This document shows, in pieces, positions 4,773 to 15,773 of a stretch of 52,243 bases of DNA. The position numbers and the translations under genes are program-made. The first letter of the stretch is position 1. Each line of letters begins with the position of its first letter. Under the pieces are notes generated by a model. The model did no database searches. It had not been told where the DNA came from and saw nothing but the letters and a program-made list of their open reading frames with translations. Source of the DNA: an uncultured Pseudomonadota bacterium (GTDB taxonomy: Bacteria; SAR324; NAC60-12); the NCBI GenBank assembly GCA_913052275.1, contig CAJXDX010000001.1, positions 1-52,243 on the forward strand, given 5' to 3'.

Positions 4773-5654
4773 TTACCCATCAGCTTTCAGCGAATTGTAA
4801 AGTTCAAAAGCTTTTTCTGCAGTTTCATTTTCATGAACAACAGACCTAACAGCCTTGATCATGGCAACCGGAGCTTCTGATTGAAAGATGTTTCGACCCA
4901 TGTCCACACCGGCGGCACCCTGCTGTATTGCGTTATAAGCCATTTTCAAAGCATCCGATTCAGGAATTTTTTTGCCTCCAGCAATAACTATAGGCACAGG
5001 ACAACTGGCCGTGACAGTTTCAAAATCCTTTTCTACATAATAAGTTTTTATGTAATGAGCACCTAATTCCGCGCATATGCGTGTTGCCAGCCGGAAGTAT
5101 CTGGCATCACGCACCATATCCTTACCTACTGCGGTAACAGCCAAAGTTGGAATTCCGTACCGAGTTCCCTGATCAACAAGCCTGGTCATATTGATGATGG
5201 ACTGTTTTTCGTGTTCACCACCTATAAAAACCTGAACAGCCATGGCTGAGACATTCATCCGGATTGAATCCTCGATATCCACCGCAATTTCCTCGTTGGA
5301 TAATTCCTTTAGCATACTGGTTCCGCCGGATGCACGCATCACAATGGATTGTGTAAATGAAGGCGGCACAATACTGCGTAATATTCCGCGTGTCAGCATC
5401 AGAGTGTCCGCGTAGGGTGCGAGCGGCATTATTTTGACGTCGATACGTTCCAGACCTGTGGTTGCTCCCTGAAAATAACCGTGATCAAAGGCCAGCATTA
5501 CTGTGCGTCCCGTTTTTGGGTTAAATATTCGCGCCAACCGGTTTTGCATTCCCCAATCAATCGCGTTCAACCCTTTGAGGTAAAAAGCATCTGATTTCTG
5601 TGGAATGTCAAGGTAGTATTCTTTCGTATCTTTTAATTCATCTAAATCAGCCAT
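4773..5654 (-). CDS. DhnA/LsrF-family class I aldolase; closest by memory to LsrF (3-hydroxy-5-phosphonooxypentane-2,4-dione thiolase)
   Basis: 293 aa. It aligns by eye along nearly its whole length to E. coli LsrF as I remember it (MADLD..., [87 protein letters not shown]). No lsr transporter, lsrK or lsrG gene is nearby. Confidence 0.8.
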
Positions 5655-5684
5655 TTGTGTATTGTATATTTTAAAGTAAGAGTT

Positions 5685-7709
5685 TTAAATGACACGTTCA
5701 TTGCCCCCGTCAATTGGAATTTGCGCGCCTGTGGTTTTCGCGAAGACTGAACCTGCCATTGCACAGACCATCCGCGCCACTTCAATTGTTTTAACATCAG
5801 TTTTCAGAATATTCCTGCTTTTGTATTCTTCTACGGTTAATCCGTAACGCCTTGCGGACCTTCCCAGCGCTTTTGAAGTCCATAGACCTGTATCATAAAC
5901 ACAGTCAGGATGAATAATATTTACTCTTATACCATATTCACCCAATTCAAGAGCCGCAATCCTTGCCAATTGAGTCTGCCCTGCTTTAGGCACTGAGTAG
6001 GCAGACGCTCCAGGTCCAGGAGCAGGAACATTTCTTGAGGCGATAAAAACAACTGACGGATCAATACCTTCCTTCAAAAACGGCACACAGGACTGCAATA
6101 ACTGCTGAGGTGCGGTTAAATTTGTCTTCAGGCTTTTGTTCCAGGTTTCATCTTCCATTTCTTCGATGGTCTGTCCTGCAGGAAAAGTTCCGGCATTCAA
6201 AACAAGAATGTCTATGCCGCCAAAATATTGTACAGTTTTTGCCACTGCCTTTGCAACAGCATGTTTTTCCGTAACATCACACTGAATACCCAATATGTGT
6301 GTGCTGCCGGATTTAGTATGTTCCGAAAGGATGTTATTTATTTCAGGATTTATATCCAGCCCGGCTACCGCCGCACCCTGTTGGTTAAAATGTTCAGCAC
6401 AAGCAAGTCCGATTCCGCTGGCAGCCCCTGTAACGACAGCAATTTTTCCCTCAAATTCCGGAGGCTGGGATTCTGTTTTTAATTTTGCCTGTTGTAATTC
6501 CCAATACTCTGCCTCAAAGAGATGATCTTCAGAGATAGGTTTCCAGCCGCGGCAATTTAAGGAATTCATATTTTCCGCCTGTTGAATTGCTTTCGCAGTA
6601 TGCATAGCGATGTCTGAGATTATTTCAGTTTCATCCGGGTTCCCTCCGAAAGATACAATACCCTGTTCAGGCCAGACGCCCCAGCGTGGTGCGCTGTCCA
6701 GGCGGGTTTGTTTTCCGTCTGTGTGTCGATCAAAATAAGCTTCATATTTGGAAGCAAAGTCTTCAATGCTTTTCTCCACATTTTTCTGGTTAAGATACAT
6801 CGGAGCAGGTTTGGTACGGATAAGATGATCCGAGGTAATAGGACCGCGAGTGGAAATCTTTTTTACGTTCGGCAAACCGGAAAAAACTCGTGCTTCCGGA
6901 CTGTTATTTAACCTCGCAAGTGAAGCGGCCCCTCGGATGTTGGAGACCTTTTTTCTGATACGTGCAAGTTTTCTTAAGGTTTCCTGATGTAATGCTGGTG
7001 CTTTTTTCTTAATATTATTTTTTGGCAAGGAAGAATGTTTTTTCAGAAACTTTTCTGCCAGCGTAACTGCATTGATCATTCTTTCATAACTCTCATGTGC
7101 TTCTGCACCAAATGAAATTATGCCATGATTCAGCAGAATCATTCCTTCGTATTGTTGCCAGTCCACCTTCTGCGTAATTTCAAAAACCTTGCGAGCCAGT
7201 TTGAAACCTGGCATTACATACGGAATGATAAGCAAACGGTCACCGTAAACATCTTGAATTAATTTCTCTCCTTTTGGTGTATTTGTTAAAGTGACAACAG
7301 CATCAGCATGGGTATGGTCGATCCAGCTAAAGGGAATGATAGCGTGAAGAAGAGCTTCTACTGAGGGACTGGGGGCATCCGGATTGGTCATGGCAAGCTG
7401 CTGTTCACGTACCATCATTGTGTCGCTGATATGCACAAGCTCCGCCAGTTTCTTCATATTTGTCAGACGAAGCGGAGTGAATCCTTCTGCATCAATTGTG
7501 GCTAAATTCCTGCCGCTCCCTTTAACGTACAGGATATCTTCTTCTTCTCCAAATATGTTTGTTTCACGGAGCTTTACTGAAGTATTGCCTCCACCGTGCA
7601 GCACCAGGTCTGAATCAAGTCCAAGCAGTTGTGAAGAATAAACACGCAGCTGTAGGGAGTTTTCTTCAAGCCTGGAAGCTGTTTTTTGATCCCACAGGTT
7701 TTTCATCAA
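5685..7709 (-). CDS. bifunctional class II aldolase/adducin-domain + short-chain dehydrogenase fusion (RhaEW/YuxG-type)
   Basis: 674 aa. The N-terminal half has LHGGGNTSVK and IDHTHADAVV (class II aldolase metal/His motifs). The C-terminal roughly 250 aa is an SDR (VVTGAASGIGLA, LVLNAGT, YSVPKAG = YxxxK). There is a 30-bp gap to the LsrF-like gene. Confidence 0.8.
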   Translation of the reverse strand: MMKNLWDQKTASRLEENSLQLRVYSSQLLGLDSDLVLHGGGNTSVKLRETNIFGEEEDILYVKGSGRNLATIDAEGFTPLRLTNMKKLAELVHISDTMMVREQQLAMTNPDAPSPSVEALLHAIIPFSWIDHTHADAVVTLTNTPKGEKLIQDVYGDRLLIIPYVMPGFKLARKVFEITQKVDWQQYEGMILLNHGIISFGAEAHESYERMINAVTLAEKFLKKHSSLPKNNIKKKAPALHQETLRKLARIRKKVSNIRGAASLARLNNSPEARVFSGLPNVKKISTRGPITSDHLIRTKPAPMYLNQKNVEKSIEDFASKYEAYFDRHTDGKQTRLDSAPRWGVWPEQGIVSFGGNPDETEIISDIAMHTAKAIQQAENMNSLNCRGWKPISEDHLFEAEYWELQQAKLKTESQPPEFEGKIAVVTGAASGIGLACAEHFNQQGAAVAGLDINPEINNILSEHTKSGSTHILGIQCDVTEKHAVAKAVAKTVQYFGGIDILVLNAGTFPAGQTIEEMEDETWNKSLKTNLTAPQQLLQSCVPFLKEGIDPSVVFIASRNVPAPGPGASAYSVPKAGQTQLARIAALELGEYGIRVNIIHPDCVYDTGLWTSKALGRSARRYGLTVEEYKSRNILKTDVKTIEVARMVCAMAGSVFAKTTGAQIPIDGGNERVI

Positions 7710-7724
7710 AATAGGTTACATGAA

Positions 7725-8768
7725 CTAAAGATATTTATTCTGCAGATTTTCTTTATATGGAGGCCCTATAATTCCTTTGTCCGTAATCAGGCCAGTTACT
7801 AAATCATTCGGAGTTACGTCAAAAGCAGGATTTTGGGCTTTCATATTTTCAGGAGCTGTTCTCTGCAGTCCGAAATTTGTTACTTCTTCTGTCTTCCTTT
7901 GCTCGATCAAAATATCCTTGCCTTGCTTTGTTTTAAAGTCAATCGTGGAGTATGGACAAGCCACGTAAAAGGGAATTTCAAAATGTCTGGCCATGATGGC
8001 TAATCCATGAGTACCGATCTTATTGGCTACATCCCCGTTAGCAGCCACGCGGTCGGTTCCTGTAATAACCAAATCAATCAGTCCCTGTGACATAATATGA
8101 GCCGCCATATTGTCTGTTAGAAGGGTAACGTCCAGTCCGGACTGTTGAAGTTCCCAGCTTGTCAAACGAGCTCCCTGAAGCAGCGGGCGTGTTTCACTGG
8201 AGTACACTCGAAAGCTAATCTTTTCACGGTGTGCCAAATACATTGGAGCAGTGGCGGTACCAATCCCTGTAGTTGCCAGAGCACCTGCATTACAGTGTGT
8301 CATTACACCCATGTCTTTTTTAATCAGTGAAACACCGTATTTACCAATGTCCAGGCAAAGCTGTTCATCCTCATTATGAATGCGAATTGCTTCCTCCTCC
8401 AGGTACTTGAATAATTCTTTTGAATCGTCTCCAGAAAATGATTTTGCGTATTCCAGCATTCGGTCCAGTGCCCATTTTAAATTGACAGCCGTTGGCCGGG
8501 CACTGTCCAGATATGCTGCTTTAGCTTTAATTAACTCATTAAATCTATTTTTATGCAGCTCTGTTTTATCCCGAATTGCCAAAAGTAAACCGTATGCTCC
8601 TGCTACTCCGATTGCAGGAGCCCCTCTTACTTTGAGCTGCTTAATAGAATCCCAGACCTGTTCCACAGTTTCCTGCTTTTCTTCCACCACTTTGTGAGGC
8701 AGCAGTGTTTGATCAAGGAAGTATAATTCTCCTGAGTTCCAGCGAATGGTCTGAGGTAGAGATAACAT
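7725..8768 (-). CDS. mtnA: S-methyl-5-thioribose-1-phosphate isomerase family (eIF-2B alpha/beta/delta-like)
   Basis: 347 aa. MtnA-type N-terminus (IRWNSGELYFLDQTLLPHK), LKVRGAPAIGVAGAYGL, RPTAVNL, THCNAGALAT, GTDRVAANGDVANKIGT, NPAFDVTP. There is a 15-bp gap to the aldolase/SDR gene. Confidence 0.8.
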   Translation of the reverse strand: MLSLPQTIRWNSGELYFLDQTLLPHKVVEEKQETVEQVWDSIKQLKVRGAPAIGVAGAYGLLLAIRDKTELHKNRFNELIKAKAAYLDSARPTAVNLKWALDRMLEYAKSFSGDDSKELFKYLEEEAIRIHNEDEQLCLDIGKYGVSLIKKDMGVMTHCNAGALATTGIGTATAPMYLAHREKISFRVYSSETRPLLQGARLTSWELQQSGLDVTLLTDNMAAHIMSQGLIDLVITGTDRVAANGDVANKIGTHGLAIMARHFEIPFYVACPYSTIDFKTKQGKDILIEQRKTEEVTNFGLQRTAPENMKAQNPAFDVTPNDLVTGLITDKGIIGPPYKENLQNKYL

Positions 8769-9045
8769 AGTAGTTTGAAAAATTATTAAATGAAAATGTT
8801 GAAGTGTTTTATCAGCAGAATATCACAGCACAACCAATTGCATTGCTCAAATCAAAAACATTAAAAGCACAGCCTGGTATTTAATTTCGAAGCTTACTCA
8901 AACTATGTTAACTATTTGTTTAGCTTGTTGTTTTTTCACCAAAATATTACATTTACAATTCAATCTTAAACAGTATTTTGATTGAGAATTCAAACAAATT
9001 AAAGCTGTTCTAATTGCCTAAGCAGTCTTTTCCTTTGCATTTTTG

Positions 9046-10461
9046 ATGGACAACACGCGTATAAAAACAAAAATAATATGTACAATCGGGCCTGAGACTG
9101 CATCATTTGAAATGATACAGCGTATGGCTGGTGCAGGAATGAATATCGTTCGATTGAACATGTCACATGGTGATCAGGACTGGCATTTTCGGGTAATCAA
9201 GCACATCAAAACACTAAACCGCAAAGTTAAATTCCCTATCGCGATTCTGCTTGACACACAGGGACCGGAAATACGTACAGGCCATCTGTCGTCCAATTTG
9301 GATCTGAAAAAAGGCTCTGTGATTTCGATAACGATTCGCGGAGCGAGTGAAGTTGAGGAAACTTCAATACATATAGACTACGACGACCTGATCAGTTCTG
9401 TGCATGCCGGAGACAAAATTACTGTTGACAACGGTTTGATAAATCTTGAAGTATTAGAAAAACAGGAACGAATCATGCGATGTCGAGTTCTGGATGGCGG
9501 AGTACTCAAGAGTAAAAGTCATGTAAATCTACCGGGCGTACGTGTTAATCTGCCGGCTATTACCCAGAAAGACCGTCGTGACATATTATTTGGAATCAAA
9601 CATGATGTGGATTTCATCGCACTTTCTTTTGTCAGGGAACCTGCTGATGTTTTACAGTTAAAAGAGTTACTTGGAGACAAAGTTGGAAAAATCAAGATCA
9701 TAGCGAAAATTGAAGATCAGGAAGGAGTTACCAATATTGAAAAAATCATTTCAGAAGTAGATGGTATTATGGTTGCCCGTGGAGATTTAGGAATCGAAAT
9801 ACCAATTCATTCTGTACCAACTGTTCAGCGTAAAATTGTCAGGTCATGTTCGGAACAGGGAAAAAGAGTAATTATTGCCACGCATTTACTGGAATCAATG
9901 ATTAAAAACCCTCTTCCTACGCGTGCTGAAGTGACTGATGTGGCAAATGCTATTTATGAAGAAGTAGATGCTGTGATGTTGTCTGGTGAAACTACTGTAG
10001 GAAAGTATCCATTGCGTTGTATCGACCAACTGGTCAATATTGCTCAAAACGTTGAAAATCAGCCAGGATTGCGTTTTGTTGACAATCTAAACACAGACAA
10101 TGATAAACAAAAGTTTTCACTTGCTGCAGTGGATCTGGCGCAATCACTTGGTGCAAGCTGCATAGTTGTTATCACCAGGCGTGGGATAATGGCTGAAATG
10201 GTTTGTAATTGCCGTCCGGTTTACAGTGATATTTATGCTTTCACGAATGTAAGCCAGGCCAGAAGAACTATGATGCTGGGCCGTGGAATTAGATCTTTCC
10301 GGATTGCCTTCAGTCAGGACCCGGAGAAAACTCTTCAAAACGCATTCAAAGTGCTTAAGGAAAGGGAAGGATTTCAAGCTGGTGAAAAGGTTGTGGTAAT
10401 TTCAGATGTACTTGCAGGTTCAGGAAAAATTGACGCGATTCAAATACGTCACCTGCCTTGA
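9046..10461 (+). CDS. pyk: pyruvate kinase
   Basis: TKIICTIGP, RLNMSHG, DTQGPEIRTG, MVARGDLGIE, ATHLLESM. The ORF track starts at TTG 9043, and an ATG follows immediately at 9046. Confidence 0.9.
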   Translation: MDNTRIKTKIICTIGPETASFEMIQRMAGAGMNIVRLNMSHGDQDWHFRVIKHIKTLNRKVKFPIAILLDTQGPEIRTGHLSSNLDLKKGSVISITIRGASEVEETSIHIDYDDLISSVHAGDKITVDNGLINLEVLEKQERIMRCRVLDGGVLKSKSHVNLPGVRVNLPAITQKDRRDILFGIKHDVDFIALSFVREPADVLQLKELLGDKVGKIKIIAKIEDQEGVTNIEKIISEVDGIMVARGDLGIEIPIHSVPTVQRKIVRSCSEQGKRVIIATHLLESMIKNPLPTRAEVTDVANAIYEEVDAVMLSGETTVGKYPLRCIDQLVNIAQNVENQPGLRFVDNLNTDNDKQKFSLAAVDLAQSLGASCIVVITRRGIMAEMVCNCRPVYSDIYAFTNVSQARRTMMLGRGIRSFRIAFSQDPEKTLQNAFKVLKEREGFQAGEKVVVISDVLAGSGKIDAIQIRHLP

Positions 10462-10505
10462 GTGCTCTTTTGAATGACTTTACCGTGTATTAAAACCGTT
10501 TTGCC

Positions 10506-11675
<1,170 letters not shown>

Positions 11676-11742
11676 TCATTAATTTTTGATTTCATTTTAG
11701 CCTGTTTTTATGCATCTCAATCTGAAAACAATTAATCACTTG

Positions 11743-13899
11743 TCATCGAATCGGATGGAATAACTGGCCGTCCTTAACCATCTTCCTGATTTGCTCTGTG
11801 GGTTCATATATTTTTCCAAAAGACTTAAGTTTTTCGGCTCGCTGCAGTAATTCATCCAACCCTGCAGAATCAGCCCAACGGAAAATTCCACCACGGAATG
11901 GTGGGAACCCAAGTCCGTATATCAGTCCCATATCAACTTCCATGGGAGTCTCTACTATATTATCTTCCAAACATCGAGAACTTTCCATCAACATTGGAAG
12001 CATCATCCTGTCAACAATATCTTCGTCGCTTATATCATCTCCGGAGCTTGCATTAAAATCACGGATAAAATTTCCAGTTTCCGGGTTTACCTCTTTTTTG
12101 GGTTTACCTTTCTTGTCTTTGGAATGAATATAAAACCCTTTTTCGTTTTTCTTGCCGAACCATTTCTGTTCAAACATTTTAGATATAATTGTAGGATCTT
12201 CCCTGCTCATTCGGTCAGGGTACCCTTCAGCCATCACACTGCCTGCATGGAAAGCTGTGTCAATGCCCACCACGTCCAGCAGACATGCGGGGCCCATTGG
12301 CCACCCGAATTTTTCCATAACTTTATCAATATGCTCATAATCAACTCCGTCACTTACCAAACCTGTAAAACCTGCAATGTAAGGAAACAACACTCTATTT
12401 ACAAGAAAACCTGGACAGTCATTTACCACGATCGGACTTTTTCCCATTGCAGCTGCAAAGGCAACTGTGGAAGCAATTGTTGGTTCAGAACTTTTTTCAC
12501 CACGGATCACCTCAACAAGGGGCATTCTGTGAACCGGATTAAAAAAGTGCATACCGCAAAACTGTTCCGGACGTTTAAGTCCTTTAGCCAGTTTTGTAAT
12601 TGAAATGGTGGAGGTATTAGAAGCAAGGATCGCGTTTTTACGGATGATTGATTCAGTTTCGGACAGTACTGCTTTTTTCACACTTTCCTTTTCTACCACT
12701 GCCTCGACCACCAGGTCCGCCTCAGCAATATTTTCATATGAAAGTGTTGGAGTAATATCAGTCAAAATATGAGTCATTTCCTCTACTTCCATTTGCCCGC
12801 GGTCAATACGTTTTTGCATTATTTTAGCAGCTTCCTTTATGCCCAATTCCAGTTGAGATTGGGCAATATCCTTCATGGCTATTGGAATCCCTTTGAAGGC
12901 GGATTGATAAGCAACCCCTCCACCCATAATACCTGCACCAAGAACTGCAGCACGATTTACCGGTTCAGCCATTTTTTTTGAACTTTTGGCTTTTTTCTTC
13001 AGTAATTGATCACCTAAAAATAAGCCTATTAATGAAGTTGCTTCCGGAGACTTTGCAAGTTCCGCAAATCCTTCCGCCTCAATTTCCAGTGCTCCTTCAA
13101 GTGGAAGATTTGCACCGGCCTGCATAACTCCGACAATAGTCAAAGGTGCAGGATAGTTTGGACCTGCCTTTCCTGCAATGAATGCACGCGCTGTCTCAAA
13201 AGTCATCATTGCTTCGTTTTCATTCAACATCAAGGGCTGTTGTTTTACTTTACGTTTTGTTTCCCAGTCCAGTTCACCCCTGATTGCTCTAGCAAGCAGG
13301 TCCAAAGAGGCATCCCGTAATATTTCAGGTTCGACCACTGAATCTACAGCACCTGCCTTAAGAGCATTTTCTGGATTGTTATCCTTCCCTCCTGCTATCC
13401 ATTCAATGGCATTATCAGCACCTATGAGTCTTGGCAGTCTTGCTGTGCCTCCAAATCCGGGCAGCAAGCCAAGTTTAACTTCAGGCAAGCCTACTTTTGC
13501 TTGCTTAGAGGCTACACGATAAGTACATGCTAGACATATTTCAAATCCTCCTCCAAGTGCAAATCCATTTATTGCGCATACACTGGGTATATTTAAATTT
13601 TCAAGATTTGAAAAAACCTGCTGGCTGTCTTTTACCCATTGCACAAGCTTGTCCAGTGGTTCCTGAAAAATCCCCAGAAACTGGTTAATATCTGCACCAA
13701 CAATGAATGTGTCTTTTCCGCTGGAGATAAGCAGTCCTTTTACTGATTGATCTTTTTCCAGTAGCTTAACAACTTCATTGAGTTCCTGAAGCGAGTTTTT
13801 GTCAAACTTATTTACTGAACCATCCTGTAAGTCAAATACCAGCTCAGCAATATTGTTTTCCAGAGTATGGCATTGTAGAGTCTGGCCTTTGTATTCCAT
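11743..13899 (-). CDS. fadB: fatty-acid oxidation complex alpha subunit (enoyl-CoA hydratase / 3-hydroxyacyl-CoA dehydrogenase)
   Basis: 718 aa. N-terminal crotonase fold (FIVGADI, GFALGGGFE) and a central Rossmann motif (AVLGAGIMGGGVA). Forms a FadB-FadA pairing. Confidence 0.9.
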   Translation of the reverse strand: MEYKGQTLQCHTLENNIAELVFDLQDGSVNKFDKNSLQELNEVVKLLEKDQSVKGLLISSGKDTFIVGADINQFLGIFQEPLDKLVQWVKDSQQVFSNLENLNIPSVCAINGFALGGGFEICLACTYRVASKQAKVGLPEVKLGLLPGFGGTARLPRLIGADNAIEWIAGGKDNNPENALKAGAVDSVVEPEILRDASLDLLARAIRGELDWETKRKVKQQPLMLNENEAMMTFETARAFIAGKAGPNYPAPLTIVGVMQAGANLPLEGALEIEAEGFAELAKSPEATSLIGLFLGDQLLKKKAKSSKKMAEPVNRAAVLGAGIMGGGVAYQSAFKGIPIAMKDIAQSQLELGIKEAAKIMQKRIDRGQMEVEEMTHILTDITPTLSYENIAEADLVVEAVVEKESVKKAVLSETESIIRKNAILASNTSTISITKLAKGLKRPEQFCGMHFFNPVHRMPLVEVIRGEKSSEPTIASTVAFAAAMGKSPIVVNDCPGFLVNRVLFPYIAGFTGLVSDGVDYEHIDKVMEKFGWPMGPACLLDVVGIDTAFHAGSVMAEGYPDRMSREDPTIISKMFEQKWFGKKNEKGFYIHSKDKKGKPKKEVNPETGNFIRDFNASSGDDISDEDIVDRMMLPMLMESSRCLEDNIVETPMEVDMGLIYGLGFPPFRGGIFRWADSAGLDELLQRAEKLKSFGKIYEPTEQIRKMVKDGQLFHPIR

Positions 13900-13922
13900 A
13901 TATTCAGATTGAGTTAAATAGA

Positions 13923-15773
13923 TTAAAAAGTTATTTCAAGCGCATCGAAGTTCTGTTTTTTACCTCCTTCAAGTAAAGCATGGTATTGAGGTATGACAGC
14001 TTCCAAAAAATAACGTGCGGTTTTCAGCTTATTTGAGTAAAAAAGAGCGTTCTCATTTTCCACCAGCAATTCTGAATCATCAAGGTCTTCCAGTCCTTCT
14101 TTCGATCTTATCCTTGACAATTGTTCTGATGCTACAACTGCTTGCTGCAATAACAGCCAGCCTGCTGTAACTGAAGAAATAAACATTAAAAATGGTGTTG
14201 CATAAAGCGCGATGGATTCCATACCCCGTTCCTTCAATATTTCCTGCGTTGACATTGAAGTTTCGTAAAGTGATTCGCAATAACCTTCAAATATATTGAT
14301 TAATTGTCCCATTTCTTGGTGGTCCCTGTGCTCATTTATTAATTCACTATAATTTCCCATAAGTTGCTGAAAAAGAGCACCATCGTTGCGGAGAATTTTT
14401 CTGCCGATTAAATCCAGAGCTTGAATATCGGTTGTACCTTCATAAATTGTAGAAATTCTTGCATCTCTGTACAATTGCTCAAGAGGGAAGTCTTTGGTAT
14501 AACCTACGCCGCCCATTACCTGAAGCCCAGCTTGTACAACTTCAAGTCCAACCTCCGTACACCAGCCCTTGCACATTGGTGTAAGCAGATCGATCATGTT
14601 CTGTCTATTTTCTTTTTCCTTCTCAGTTTCAGCAATTTTCTCCAAATCGAATTGCAATGCAGTATAGTAAAGCAGAGCGCGCATAGCTTCGACCCTTGAC
14701 TTCATATTGATCAGATTGAGCCGAACGGCAGGGTGTTCAATTATTGATACACGTTGAGCATTTAAATCACGGATTTTTGAAATGTTTGTACCCTGAACAC
14801 GCTCATGTGCATAAGTTTTTGCGTTTTCGTATGCAGCTCCGCCTAGGGACAAGCCAATTAATCCGGTAAAAATTCGTGCTGTATTCATCATCTGAAACAT
14901 GGCAGCAATTCCCTGGCCTTCACTGCCAAGAATCCAGCCCAGACAATCGTCATTTTCTCCAAAACTCAGAACTGCGGTTGGACTTGAATGGATTCCCATT
15001 TTATTCTCAATGGATACAACTGTGACGTCATTCCAGTCTCCTAATGAGCCGTCATCGTTTACTCTGAAATATGGAACCACAAACAGGCTCAAACCTTTTG
15101 TGCCATCTGGAGCTCCCTTGACACGTGCTAAGACTGCATGAATTACGTTTTCACCCAAGTCATTATCTCCAGAAGAAATCCAGCATTTAGTACCTTTAAT
15201 TTTGTAAACACCATTCCCCAGCGGTTCGGCGCTTGTTATTCCTGCTCCGACATCGGACCCAGCATGCGGCTCACTCAAACACATAGTCCCTGTATACTGT
15301 CCCTGAAACATTTTTGCTATGTATTTTTCCTTCAACATGTCTGAGCCATATGTTTCAATCAATTTTGCGGCTCCTGAAGTGAGTCCGAAAAACATCCCTA
15401 ATCCGAGATTTGCGCCGTTTATTGCTTCACTGACTATTAAGCCTATAGTTGCGGGAGCACCCATGCCACCGTATTCTGGCGAATCGGAAATCGAAGCCCA
15501 TCCCAATTCATAGGCCTTTTGAAAAGGCTTGTGTAAACATTCAGAAACTTTTACCCTGCCCTCTTCCAGTCTGCAGCCCTTACGATCACTTTCTGCTCGA
15601 GTTGGGAAAACCACCTCAATCGCAAAACGTATTCCTTCCTGTACCATCATTTCAAGGGTGTCCTGATCAAATTCAGCATATTTTTCGGAATTGTTCAGTT
15701 TCCCAAGTTGAAGCCATTCACTGATTGCGAAGCTGATATCACGCTGGTCAAGTGTTAAATCAGTACTACTCAT
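13923..15773 (-). CDS. long-form acyl-CoA dehydrogenase (about 600-aa class with extra C-terminal domain)
   Basis: 616 aa. ACAD blocks (LSEPHAGSD, GTKCWISSG, IYEGTTDIQALDL). First gene of the beta-oxidation operon, with a 23-bp gap to fadB. Confidence 0.85.
   Translation of the reverse strand: MSSTDLTLDQRDISFAISEWLQLGKLNNSEKYAEFDQDTLEMMVQEGIRFAIEVVFPTRAESDRKGCRLEEGRVKVSECLHKPFQKAYELGWASISDSPEYGGMGAPATIGLIVSEAINGANLGLGMFFGLTSGAAKLIETYGSDMLKEKYIAKMFQGQYTGTMCLSEPHAGSDVGAGITSAEPLGNGVYKIKGTKCWISSGDNDLGENVIHAVLARVKGAPDGTKGLSLFVVPYFRVNDDGSLGDWNDVTVVSIENKMGIHSSPTAVLSFGENDDCLGWILGSEGQGIAAMFQMMNTARIFTGLIGLSLGGAAYENAKTYAHERVQGTNISKIRDLNAQRVSIIEHPAVRLNLINMKSRVEAMRALLYYTALQFDLEKIAETEKEKENRQNMIDLLTPMCKGWCTEVGLEVVQAGLQVMGGVGYTKDFPLEQLYRDARISTIYEGTTDIQALDLIGRKILRNDGALFQQLMGNYSELINEHRDHQEMGQLINIFEGYCESLYETSMSTQEILKERGMESIALYATPFLMFISSVTAGWLLLQQAVVASEQLSRIRSKEGLEDLDDSELLVENENALFYSNKLKTARYFLEAVIPQYHALLEGGKKQNFDALEITF

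Follow-up and report, generated by a model that had tools for sequence, protein, structure and literature searches.

We analysed a 52,243-nucleotide stretch of DNA (hereafter, the window) from contig CAJXDX010000001.1 of a marine SAR324 cluster bacterium. Three co-directional genes on its minus strand encode an MtnA-type isomerase (7725..8768, 347 aa), a fusion of a class II aldolase-like domain with a short-chain dehydrogenase (SDR; 5685..7709, 674 aa), and an orthologue of the autoinducer-2 (AI-2) thiolase LsrF (4773..5654, 293 aa). We propose that this trio may be an operon for an oxidative, coenzyme A (CoA)-linked variant of the dihydroxyacetone phosphate (DHAP) shunt, that is, for the salvage of 5-deoxyribose. 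We put forward this role of the SAR324 trio tentatively, as a possibility somewhat short of probable. The three families are known, and NCBI already annotates the three products by these family names; what appears to be new is the gene combination and the oxidative route. The open reading frame (ORF) map agreed with the initial annotation, which had described three same-strand genes separated by 15 bp (mtnA/fusion) and 30 bp (fusion/lsrF). Note that the fusion ORF as listed opens at a TTG (7709), and that the ATG at 7706, the next codon, is more likely to be the start because the fusion homologues are 673 aa long; the mtnA/fusion gap would then be 18 bp.

MtnA-type isomerases give 5-methylthio- or 5-deoxyribulose-1-phosphate, which is then cleaved by a class II aldolase in the DHAP shunt (PMC6079011; PMC10986504), and LsrF transfers the acetyl group of the LsrG product, 3-hydroxy-2,4-pentanedione-5-phosphate (P-HPD) or its hydrate, to CoA, giving DHAP and acetyl-CoA (PMC8016206). 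In the proposed route, MtnA would isomerise 5-deoxyribose-1-phosphate, and probably 5-methylthioribose-1-phosphate too, to the ribulose-1-phosphate forms, and the NAD-dependent SDR domain would then oxidise the C4 hydroxyl of 5-deoxyribulose-1-phosphate. By our own structural reasoning, C4 oxidation of this compound (CH3-CHOH-CHOH-CO-CH2OP) yields CH3-CO-CHOH-CO-CH2OP, which is the constitution of P-HPD, as the initial annotation had claimed. LsrF would form a Schiff base through Lys203 and pass the acyl group to CoA, giving DHAP and acetyl-CoA, or DHAP and methylthioacetyl-CoA from the methylthio substrate. The aldolase-like domain, for its part, might carry out a retro-aldol cleavage of the hydrated diketone to DHAP and the free acid, as a hydrolytic parallel to LsrF; such a cleavage would be feasible because the C4 gem-diol is a legitimate retro-aldol substrate. 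The role of this domain is the weakest part of the proposal. An MtnB-like dehydratase role was also considered for it and rejected on chemical grounds of our own, because the product, a 2,3-diketone, would be unusable by an LsrF-type retro-Claisen cleavage. We favour the oxidative route because of the coupling of dehydrogenases with LsrF, the links of MtnA and MtnK genes to the fusion, and the presence of a RhaE-like protein in the lsrF slot of an AI-2 operon.

The first protein (Pfam IF-2B) is, as judged from its profile scores, a bona fide MtnA. It scored 465 bits against NF004326 (cut-off 271) and 432 bits against TIGR00512 (cut-off 279), both curated NCBIfam profiles, and its best PDB match was Bacillus subtilis MtnA (2yrf, E 1e-99). 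The cysteine of the CNAG motif and the aspartate of GxDRxxxNGD were retained in the alignment with 2yrf; we take these to correspond to the catalytic residues of the B. subtilis enzyme, Cys160 and Asp240. On the other hand, a ribose-1,5-bisphosphate isomerase was rejected for this gene, with TIGR00511 giving only 181 bits against a cut-off of 314, and PDB structures of that enzyme matched at E 1e-33 to 1e-35. The family named in the initial annotation was thus upheld by profile scores above and below the respective cut-offs. The gene was designated mtnA for S-methyl-5-thioribose-1-phosphate isomerase, which presumably also acts on 5-deoxyribose-1-phosphate.

The third protein (Pfam DeoC/LacD) is, by sequence comparison, a true LsrF orthologue, for which P-HPD thiolase activity is predicted. 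It scored 515 bits against the equivalog NF006081 (cut-off 297), matched the PDB structure of LsrF (3gkf) at E 5e-128, and aligned without gaps to E. coli LsrF with 192 of 290 residues identical (66%), in agreement with the near end-to-end likeness that had been seen by eye. The window LsrF is as close to the E. coli protein as are those annotated in Salmonella, Klebsiella, Sagittula and Shinella (61-67% identical). The only difference between PDB entry 4p2v and wild-type LsrF is K203A, and Lys203 can therefore be read as the Schiff-base lysine; the window protein has K203 at the same position (codon 5046..5048 by the ungapped alignment). The ligand-site residues H58, K203, G226, G227, D251, M252, G253 and R254 (Diaz 2009; PMC2728841) were invariant in our LsrF alignment (A2). 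ADH synthase and FbaB or MJ0400-type aldolases were rejected for this gene, as they fell below cut-off and were far weaker than LsrF: ADH synthase gave 179 bits (cut-off 299), and the archaeal class I fructose-1,6-bisphosphate aldolase gave 114 (cut-off 430). When the window LsrF was the query of a homologue search, all the sequences returned were 98% identical or more.

To see LsrF in wider context, we scanned metagenomes with the LsrF alignment, kept the best 80 of the first 600 pattern matches, in which LsrF was 69-97% identical to that of the window, and sorted the neighbours by de novo clustering. The dominant partner was a ~340-aa Zn-dependent MDR dehydrogenase, which was adjacent in 36 of the 80 loci and usually lay 6-100 bp downstream. 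The full aldolase/SDR fusion was adjacent in 11 loci, and 6 more had an SDR or a fusion truncated at the contig end (17 in all). A stand-alone FucA/AraD-like class II aldolase was found in 8/80 loci, mostly divergent upstream, and MtnA in 4/80, plus one partial gene at a contig end; in L155, MtnA stood beside LsrF and an SDR. A small protein, with a faint, below-threshold match to the glyoxalase fold, was present in 14/80. Flanks of 1.1 kb or more on each side were available for 36 loci, and in 35 of these a dehydrogenase adjoined LsrF. LsrF thus stays constant while the type of dehydrogenase changes, which is a non-orthologous replacement of the dehydrogenase and therefore indicates functional coupling of the dehydrogenase step and LsrF. 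The widespread orphan module consists of lsrF, the ~340-aa Zn-MDR dehydrogenase and a ~129-aa protein with the sub-threshold glyoxalase-fold match (L121:8001-10685; also L089, L091, L092, L094, L113, L115, L116, L119, L122 and others); the FucA/AraD-like aldolase is often divergently upstream of it, and it has no kinase or transporter.

These loci also bear on the annotated function, in which LsrF, like its E. coli counterpart, would handle phosphorylated autoinducer-2 (P-DPD or P-HPD) that is taken up after release by other bacteria. Such a role would suit a true LsrF orthologue whose active site is complete, and lone LsrF genes, e.g., Sfum_2464, have been so read in the literature (PMC10787695). 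However, lsrK, lsrG and lsrB were found in none of the 80 LsrF-clade loci, unlike the lsr genes of E. coli and S. meliloti, which are clustered in the layouts used for comparison. The window itself, in which NCBIfam profiles were run against the 39 larger ORFs, contained no mtnB/C/D, mtnK/P/N, rhamnose genes, lsrK/lsrG or lsr transporter, in line with the absences listed in the initial annotation, and tblastn with RhaI, RhaM, RhaK, RhaS, LsrK, LsrG, LsrB and MtnK gave no match there. The NCBIfam scans and tblastn likewise detected neither lsrR nor lsrACDB in the window. The MtnA and dehydrogenase partners would also be left unexplained. Because the lsr partners are absent from all 80 loci of the clade, we consider AI-2 processing most improbable.

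The fusion protein scored 859 bits, over its full length, against NF006196 'bifunctional aldolase/short-chain dehydrogenase' (cut-off 831; also named PRK08324.2-4), and aligned full length to the PRK08324 models with an architecture of class II aldolase-like, middle and SDR domains, as in RhaEW. Pfam placed Aldolase_II at aa 32-219 and adh_short at aa 422-612. The motifs quoted earlier for this protein are all in the translation (HGGGNTS, aa 38-44; DHTHAD, 131-136; TGAASGIG, 427-434; YSVPK, 571-575), and Pfam, NCBIfam and motifs agree on a 674-aa fusion of class II aldolase/adducin and SDR. The N-terminal RhaE-like domain (aa 16-225; 7035..7664) matched PDB 3m4r, the N-terminal class II aldolase domain of a T. 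acidophilum protein, at E 2e-48, and Foldseek on the fusion model gave a TM of 0.91 to the same structure. GGGNTS, S116, E118, H132, H134 and H195 were kept in 34-36 of 36 family members drawn from every genomic context. We take E118, H132, H134 and H195 to be the equivalents of FucA E73, H92, H94 and H155 (acid/base Glu and Zn ligands), and GGGNTS and S116 presumably form the phosphate site, by comparison with FucA. The domain therefore has the His triad, Glu and phosphate motifs of a class II (Zn-dependent) aldolase/adducin.

The C-terminal domain (aa 416-674; 5688..6464, followed by the stop codon at 5685-5687) has the residues of a classical SDR, i.e., TGAASGIG at 427-434, S558, Y571 and K575, which, together with D452, were present in 34-36 of the 36 family members. 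D452 is located at the end of strand beta-2, where an acidic residue favours NAD, suggesting NAD rather than NADP as the cofactor. The nearest solved folds found by Foldseek for this domain were NAD-dependent secondary-alcohol dehydrogenases. The middle domain (aa 226-415; 6465..7034) had no Pfam or PDB match. Its conserved residues are T292, H295, K300 and E401-Y402-W403, and it always accompanies the RhaE-like domain, also in the SDR-less homologues of Sagittula and S. meliloti. In the full-length AlphaFold model of the fusion (pLDDT 87, pTM 0.87), the middle domain was of high confidence; the N-terminal plus middle region modelled from a shallow alignment gave a pLDDT of 41. A Foldseek search with the full-length model found domain-level matches only, and no full-length or middle-domain relative.

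Placement against RhaEW-type fusions put the window protein outside them. TIGR02632 gave 399 bits (cut-off 568) and NF006189 375 bits (cut-off 634), identity to RhaD of the rhamnose locus of R. johnstonii 3841 was 28.8%, and there was no rhamnose context; orthology with RhaEW was therefore rejected. In published data on RhaEW, rhamnulose-1-phosphate gave no DHAP or lactate without NAD+ (PMC3870299). This NAD+ dependence would fit oxidation before cleavage. If the aldolase-like domain acts hydrolytically as proposed above, the lack of DHAP and lactate without NAD+ would be explained, and so would the presence of an SDR, normally a secondary-alcohol enzyme, as the fused partner.

We next describe the conservation of the trio. 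The order mtnA-fusion-lsrF was retained in SAR324 relatives whose fusion was only 66-71% identical, and those with enough flank also retained the pyk, fadAB and PPIase neighbours. The homologue search with the fusion gave SAR324 relatives only, and wider diversity was obtained from a representative search outside SAR324, in which each GTDB species was represented by a single genome and the query was an alignment of diverse homologues of the fusion. The best 80 of the first 600 pattern matches were kept, with identities of 49-56%. Their lineages include Desulfobacterales, Omnitrophota, large sulfur bacteria, Zetaproteobacteria, Saprospiraceae and Cyclobacteriaceae, as well as Caldilineaceae, Planctomycetota, Gemmatimonadota and Verrucomicrobiota. 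LsrF, 78-81% identical to that of the window, lay directly downstream of the fusion in L007, L008, L011 and L064 (metagenome-assembled genomes (MAGs) of Desulfobacterales and other Deltaproteobacteria), and MtnA lay directly upstream on the same strand in L043 and L077 (Planctomycetota) and L069 (a Bacteroidetes MAG). In L050, another Bacteroidetes MAG, MtnA was upstream on the same strand with one uncharacterised ORF in between. NCBIfam profiles on the other neighbours in these Desulfobacterales, Planctomycetota and Bacteroidetes loci detected nothing pathway-related. A rough neighbour-joining tree of the N-terminal 412 residues grouped the SAR324 and Desulfobacterales LsrF-linked fusions together, within the subfamily of the MtnA-linked ones and far from the Rhizobium rhamnose RhaD. 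The full trio is thus a SAR324 arrangement, because the other 80 loci hold at most one partner, and the fusion is the hub of two recurring pairwise links. MtnA or MtnK next to the fusion recurs in four lineages. The question of whether the neighbourhood is conserved across genomes was therefore answered in part: the pairwise links hold in several phyla, whereas the full trio was seen in SAR324 only. Rhamnose genes, which had been named as a context that would argue for a rhamnose function, were found in none of the 80 closest fusion loci.

A different partner gene pair was seen in Bacteroidota. In nine genomes (L014, L016, L026, L039, L052, L055, L056, L061 and L078), the fusion was near a PEP_hydrolase-like gene (PF09370) and a UPF0261 gene, the two halves of a Tm-1-type protein pair, mostly just downstream and on the same strand; an alpha/beta hydrolase gene often overlapped upstream. 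In L030, only the PEP_hydrolase-like gene accompanied the fusion.

Around the trio, the window encodes housekeeping proteins or proteins with no family match among the 39 larger ORFs. Its genes include those for a divergent pyruvate kinase, fadA-fadB-acyl-CoA dehydrogenase, a penicillin-binding protein, pdxA, serC, acnA, ftsZ/ftsA, trkA, proS, queA and glgX. The pyruvate kinase gene and then the fadA-fadB-(616-aa acyl-CoA dehydrogenase) operon, which is acetyl-CoA-producing, flank the trio at 9043-15773, and this pyk-fadAB synteny is retained in SAR324 relatives with a fusion identity of ~70% (L001-L005). The 274 bp that separate mtnA from the divergent pyruvate kinase gene (8769..9042) presumably contain the operon promoter; a scan for consensus promoters and terminators found no more sites than in shuffled sequence. 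Such a setting might suggest that the genes are neighbours without a shared pathway, with mtnA serving methionine salvage (mtnBCD elsewhere) and the fusion and lsrF acting on unrelated substrates. The region is otherwise housekeeping, the promoter/terminator scan defines no transcription unit, and most close fusion homologues have variable, unrelated neighbours. Against this, the three genes are on one strand with gaps of 15-30 bp, they have stayed together across SAR324 down to 66-71% fusion identity, and each pairwise link recurs independently in other phyla. Because of this spacing and recurrence, we regard mere adjacency as highly unlikely.

Annotated records from cultured bacteria gave further arrangements. 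The next gene after the lsr operon of S. meliloti pSymB (lsrK, lsrR, lsrACDB) encodes a 416-aa RhaE-like class II aldolase (L172:7001-8251; CP140934.1 1029842-1031092), which is 45% identical to the window aldolase domain. This gene comes after lsrB, the position occupied by lsrF in E. coli. The S. meliloti operon has been given as lsrBDCARKG, without lsrF (Rezzonico and Duffy, PMC2561040), and the arrangement suggests that the RhaE-like aldolase is a non-orthologous replacement of LsrF. A VOC-family gene is found two genes beyond it.

On plasmid p1 of Shinella sp. H4-D48, lsrF is directly followed by the closest plasmid-borne fusion, 44.7% identical to that of the window, and then by genes for a sugar ABC transporter, an FGGY kinase and an EryB-like FAD dehydrogenase (L171:204-10142). 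On p3 of Sagittula sp. MA-2 (L167:1-8081), genes for an FAD dehydrogenase and an FGGY kinase precede lsrF, after which comes a gene for a RhaE-like protein of 397 aa that lacks the SDR and shares 33% identity with residues 19-413 of the fusion. Both loci appear polyol-like catabolic, with a sugar ABC transporter, a SorC- or DeoR-type regulator, an FGGY kinase and an EryB-like FAD dehydrogenase. Two further Rhizobiaceae, Pararhizobium qamdonense and Shinella oryzae, have a fusion (34% identical) accompanied by a SorC-type regulator within an mtnK-mtnA island, adjoining a sugar ABC transporter and the mtnK-mtnA operon. In P. qamdonense p3 (L178:186-5617; NZ_CP119568.1 256185-261616), this operon runs mtnK - mtnA - split transketolase/DXS-like gene (N and C subunits) - RuBisCO-like protein (RLP) and is divergent from the transporter, with the fusion and the SorC-type regulator on the transporter's other side. 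From its gene content, the region looks like an uncharacterised catabolic island for 5-methylthioribose (MTR) or 5-deoxyribose. In Aureibacter tunicatorum pAT4 (L168:4224-6894) and on a Parabacteroides distasonis plasmid (L169:4291-6873), lsrF follows dhaK-dhaL, which are dihydroxyacetone-kinase-type genes for two subunits; this Bacteroidota arrangement, a third type of LsrF setting, is possibly another way of phosphorylating a 4,5-dihydroxy-2,3-pentanedione (DPD)-like or ketose substrate. The module is thus used with different upstream isomerases or kinases, and the substrate-defining enzyme in the window is MtnA.

This variety gives weight to a reading in which the chemistry is the same and the substrate another. 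Ribose-1-phosphate might be converted through ribulose-1-phosphate to glycolyl-CoA and DHAP, a 1-deoxy-pentulose-5-phosphate might be used, or an aldehyde might be turned into acyl-CoA in a cycle, in which the aldolase domain builds a ketose-1-phosphate from DHAP and the aldehyde, the dehydrogenase and LsrF follow, and DHAP is catalytic. In most orphan LsrF modules, MtnA is missing and the one partner is a dehydrogenase, sometimes joined by a class II aldolase or an Rpe-like epimerase, and LsrF-fusion pairs occur in the polyol- or sugar-type loci described above (ABC transporter, FGGY kinase, EryB-like dehydrogenase). In addition, a rhamnose gene was present in a single one of the 80 LsrF loci, the metagenome locus L158:430-8816. 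There, a gene for L-rhamnose isomerase (715 bits) is accompanied by a permease gene, lsrF and two small ORFs, after which the SDR and the RhaE-like protein are encoded by separate genes whose order is opposite to that of the domains in the fusion. This locus suggests that LsrF can also serve 6-deoxyhexulose-1-phosphate cleavage. The module therefore evidently serves several substrates. In the window, however, MtnA, well above its equivalog cut-off, is the sole substrate-defining gene, MtnA or MtnK stands next to the fusion in the four lineages, and the scan of the 39 larger ORFs found no kinase, transporter or second isomerase elsewhere in the window. The aldehyde cycle would also duplicate what single acylating aldehyde dehydrogenases do. 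For the SAR324 trio, another substrate is thus distinctly unlikely in our estimation.

Several observations weigh against the oxidative route itself. The only characterised relatives of the fusion, RhaEW, are assigned as rhamnulose-1-phosphate aldolase plus lactaldehyde dehydrogenase (PMC3870299). The Zn and phosphate sites of the aldolase-like domain are conserved even in LsrF-linked fusions, and the oxidative route gives this domain nothing essential to do. Among the loci scanned, the full trio is limited to SAR324; no MtnA or LsrF gene lies within 10 kb of the fusion in 72 of the 80 closest homologues, which have variable neighbours. Many contigs in both locus sets are short, and the loci are phylogenetically non-independent. 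Most orphan LsrFs pair with an MDR rather than an SDR. A paralogue of ribulose-phosphate-3-epimerase (Rpe-like) was found in 8/80 LsrF loci, which hints at pentulose-5-phosphate-type substrates (e.g., 1-deoxy-pentulose-5-phosphate) in those lineages; the gene was directly downstream of lsrF in L143, L144, L146, L150, L156, L161 and L163 and between the fusion and lsrF in L104. The feeder enzymes MtnP or MtnN plus MtnK are not in the window, and mtnBCD elsewhere might leave mtnA for methionine salvage. The transketolase-like and RLP genes after mtnK-mtnA in Pararhizobium could complete a pathway without the fusion.

Some of these points would suit a DHAP shunt fused into one polypeptide, in which the aldolase domain cleaves 5-deoxy- or 5-methylthio-ribulose-1-phosphate to DHAP and (methylthio)acetaldehyde, the SDR oxidises or reduces the aldehyde, and LsrF is separate or auxiliary. 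The architecture is the same as that of RhaEW with its assigned aldolase and lactaldehyde dehydrogenase activities (PMC3870299), the Zn-site and phosphate-site residues are conserved, and a class II aldolase follows MtnA in the canonical DHAP shunt (PMC6079011; PMC10986504). Moreover, MtnA-fusion pairs without LsrF (L043, L050, L069, L077) and the many fusions that stand alone suggest that the fusion may finish the job by itself. However, the linked LsrF and the recurring fusion-LsrF and dehydrogenase-LsrF adjacency (35/36 loci) would be left unexplained. SDRs normally act on secondary alcohols or ketones, and the nearest solved folds are such enzymes; RhaEW without NAD+ released no DHAP, contrary to a free-standing aldolase step; and the RhaE-like protein of S. 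meliloti occupies the lsrF slot of an AI-2 operon, where the substrate is a diketone phosphate and not an aldol. We therefore judge the fused aldolase shunt to be unlikely. Of the two routes offered in the initial annotation, the oxidative one gained support from the dehydrogenase-LsrF adjacency, the lack of lsrK, lsrG and lsrB in the 80 loci and the links of the fusion, whereas the direct aldol cleavage retains the conserved Zn site in its favour.

The oxidative route can be compared with known systems. Like the DHAP shunt (MtnP or MtnN plus MtnK/DrdK, MtnA/DrdI and Ald2/DrdA; PMC6079011; PMC10986504), it would start from the same by-products of S-adenosylmethionine (SAM), use an MtnA-family isomerase followed by a class II aldolase-fold protein, and end in DHAP and a C2 fragment. 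Unlike the shunt, the trio has no stand-alone FucA-like Ald2/DrdA, and no stand-alone class II aldolase was found in the window by NCBIfam scans and tblastn; its RhaE-like domain is fused to an SDR, and an LsrF thiolase is added. For the trio, the C2 fragment is predicted to be released as an acyl-CoA (or acid) and not as a free aldehyde, so that one NADH would be gained and the thioester conserved. The feeder genes are also not clustered with the trio, in which the isomerase is the only member of the shunt/Drd cluster present. The Lsr system of E. coli and Salmonella shares the terminal enzyme, 66% identical in the window with Lys203 and the ligand site kept, as well as the predicted substrate P-HPD and the products DHAP and acetyl-CoA. 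It differs in that P-HPD of the trio would come from a dehydrogenase acting on 5-deoxyribulose-1-phosphate and not from DPD through LsrK and LsrG; the trio has no transporter, kinase, LsrG-type isomerase or LsrR, and its role would be waste disposal and not signal quenching.

With RhaEW and rhizobial RhaD, the window fusion has in common the three-part architecture and the conserved Zn-site and SDR residues, and it is predicted to act, as they do, after an isomerase on an omega-deoxy ketose-1-phosphate in an NAD+-dependent manner. On the other hand, it scores above cut-off with NF006196 and not with TIGR02632 or NF006189, is 28-29% identical to Rhizobium RhaD, and has MtnA and LsrF as partners instead of rha genes. 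The MTA-isoprenoid shunt of Rhodospirillum rubrum, named after 5'-methylthioadenosine (MTA), consists of MtnP, MtnA and an RLP, and leads carbon to 1-deoxyxylulose-5-phosphate (DXP). There, too, the MtnA product meets a non-canonical fate, with a carbonyl moved along the pentulose phosphate chain, and the mtnK-mtnA-transketolase-like-RLP operon beside the fusion gene in Pararhizobium is related to it. The trio, however, has no RLP or cupin, its carbonyl would arise by oxidation and not by isomerisation, and its route would end in DHAP and acyl-CoA and not in DXP.

In the literature, we found no paper on the combination of MtnA, the fusion and LsrF, none on an oxidative route for 5-deoxyribulose-1-phosphate or on LsrF outside AI-2 metabolism, and none on the RhaE-like gene in the lsr operon of S. 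meliloti. Almost all cells produce 5'-deoxyadenosine and MTA, and SAR324 is one of the abundant dark-ocean lineages. Clusters for 5-deoxyribose disposal are 'far from ubiquitous', and other strategies must exist (Beaudoin 2018, PMC6079011); missing disposal routes are thus an acknowledged gap. The proposed operon route would avoid free acetaldehyde and yield NADH and acetyl-CoA. It would also suggest a function for the large multi-phylum family of 'bifunctional aldolase/short-chain dehydrogenase' proteins, which so far carries no functional assignment, and a non-signalling explanation for many orphan 'LsrF / AI-2 thiolase' annotations that are now read as AI-2 quorum sensing (e.g., in Syntrophobacter, PMC10787695). 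The mechanism of RhaEW merits re-examination.

A wider reading, which we consider doubtful at present, is that the RhaE-like domain, a C4 dehydrogenase and LsrF together represent a general, widespread strategy to oxidise omega-deoxy ketose-1-phosphates and then cleave them by a retro-Claisen reaction. Cleavage of the resulting 2,4-diketo-3-hydroxy-1-phosphate would use water in the case of the RhaE-like Zn domain, which would act as an aldolase on the gem-diol, and CoA in the case of LsrF. Were this so, the accepted mechanism of RhaEW, that is, an aldolase plus a lactaldehyde dehydrogenase, would be misassigned, most environmental 'LsrF' genes would be unrelated to quorum sensing, and SAR324 and other bacteria would recover acetyl-CoA and NADH from 5-deoxyribose, a by-product of radical-SAM enzymes.

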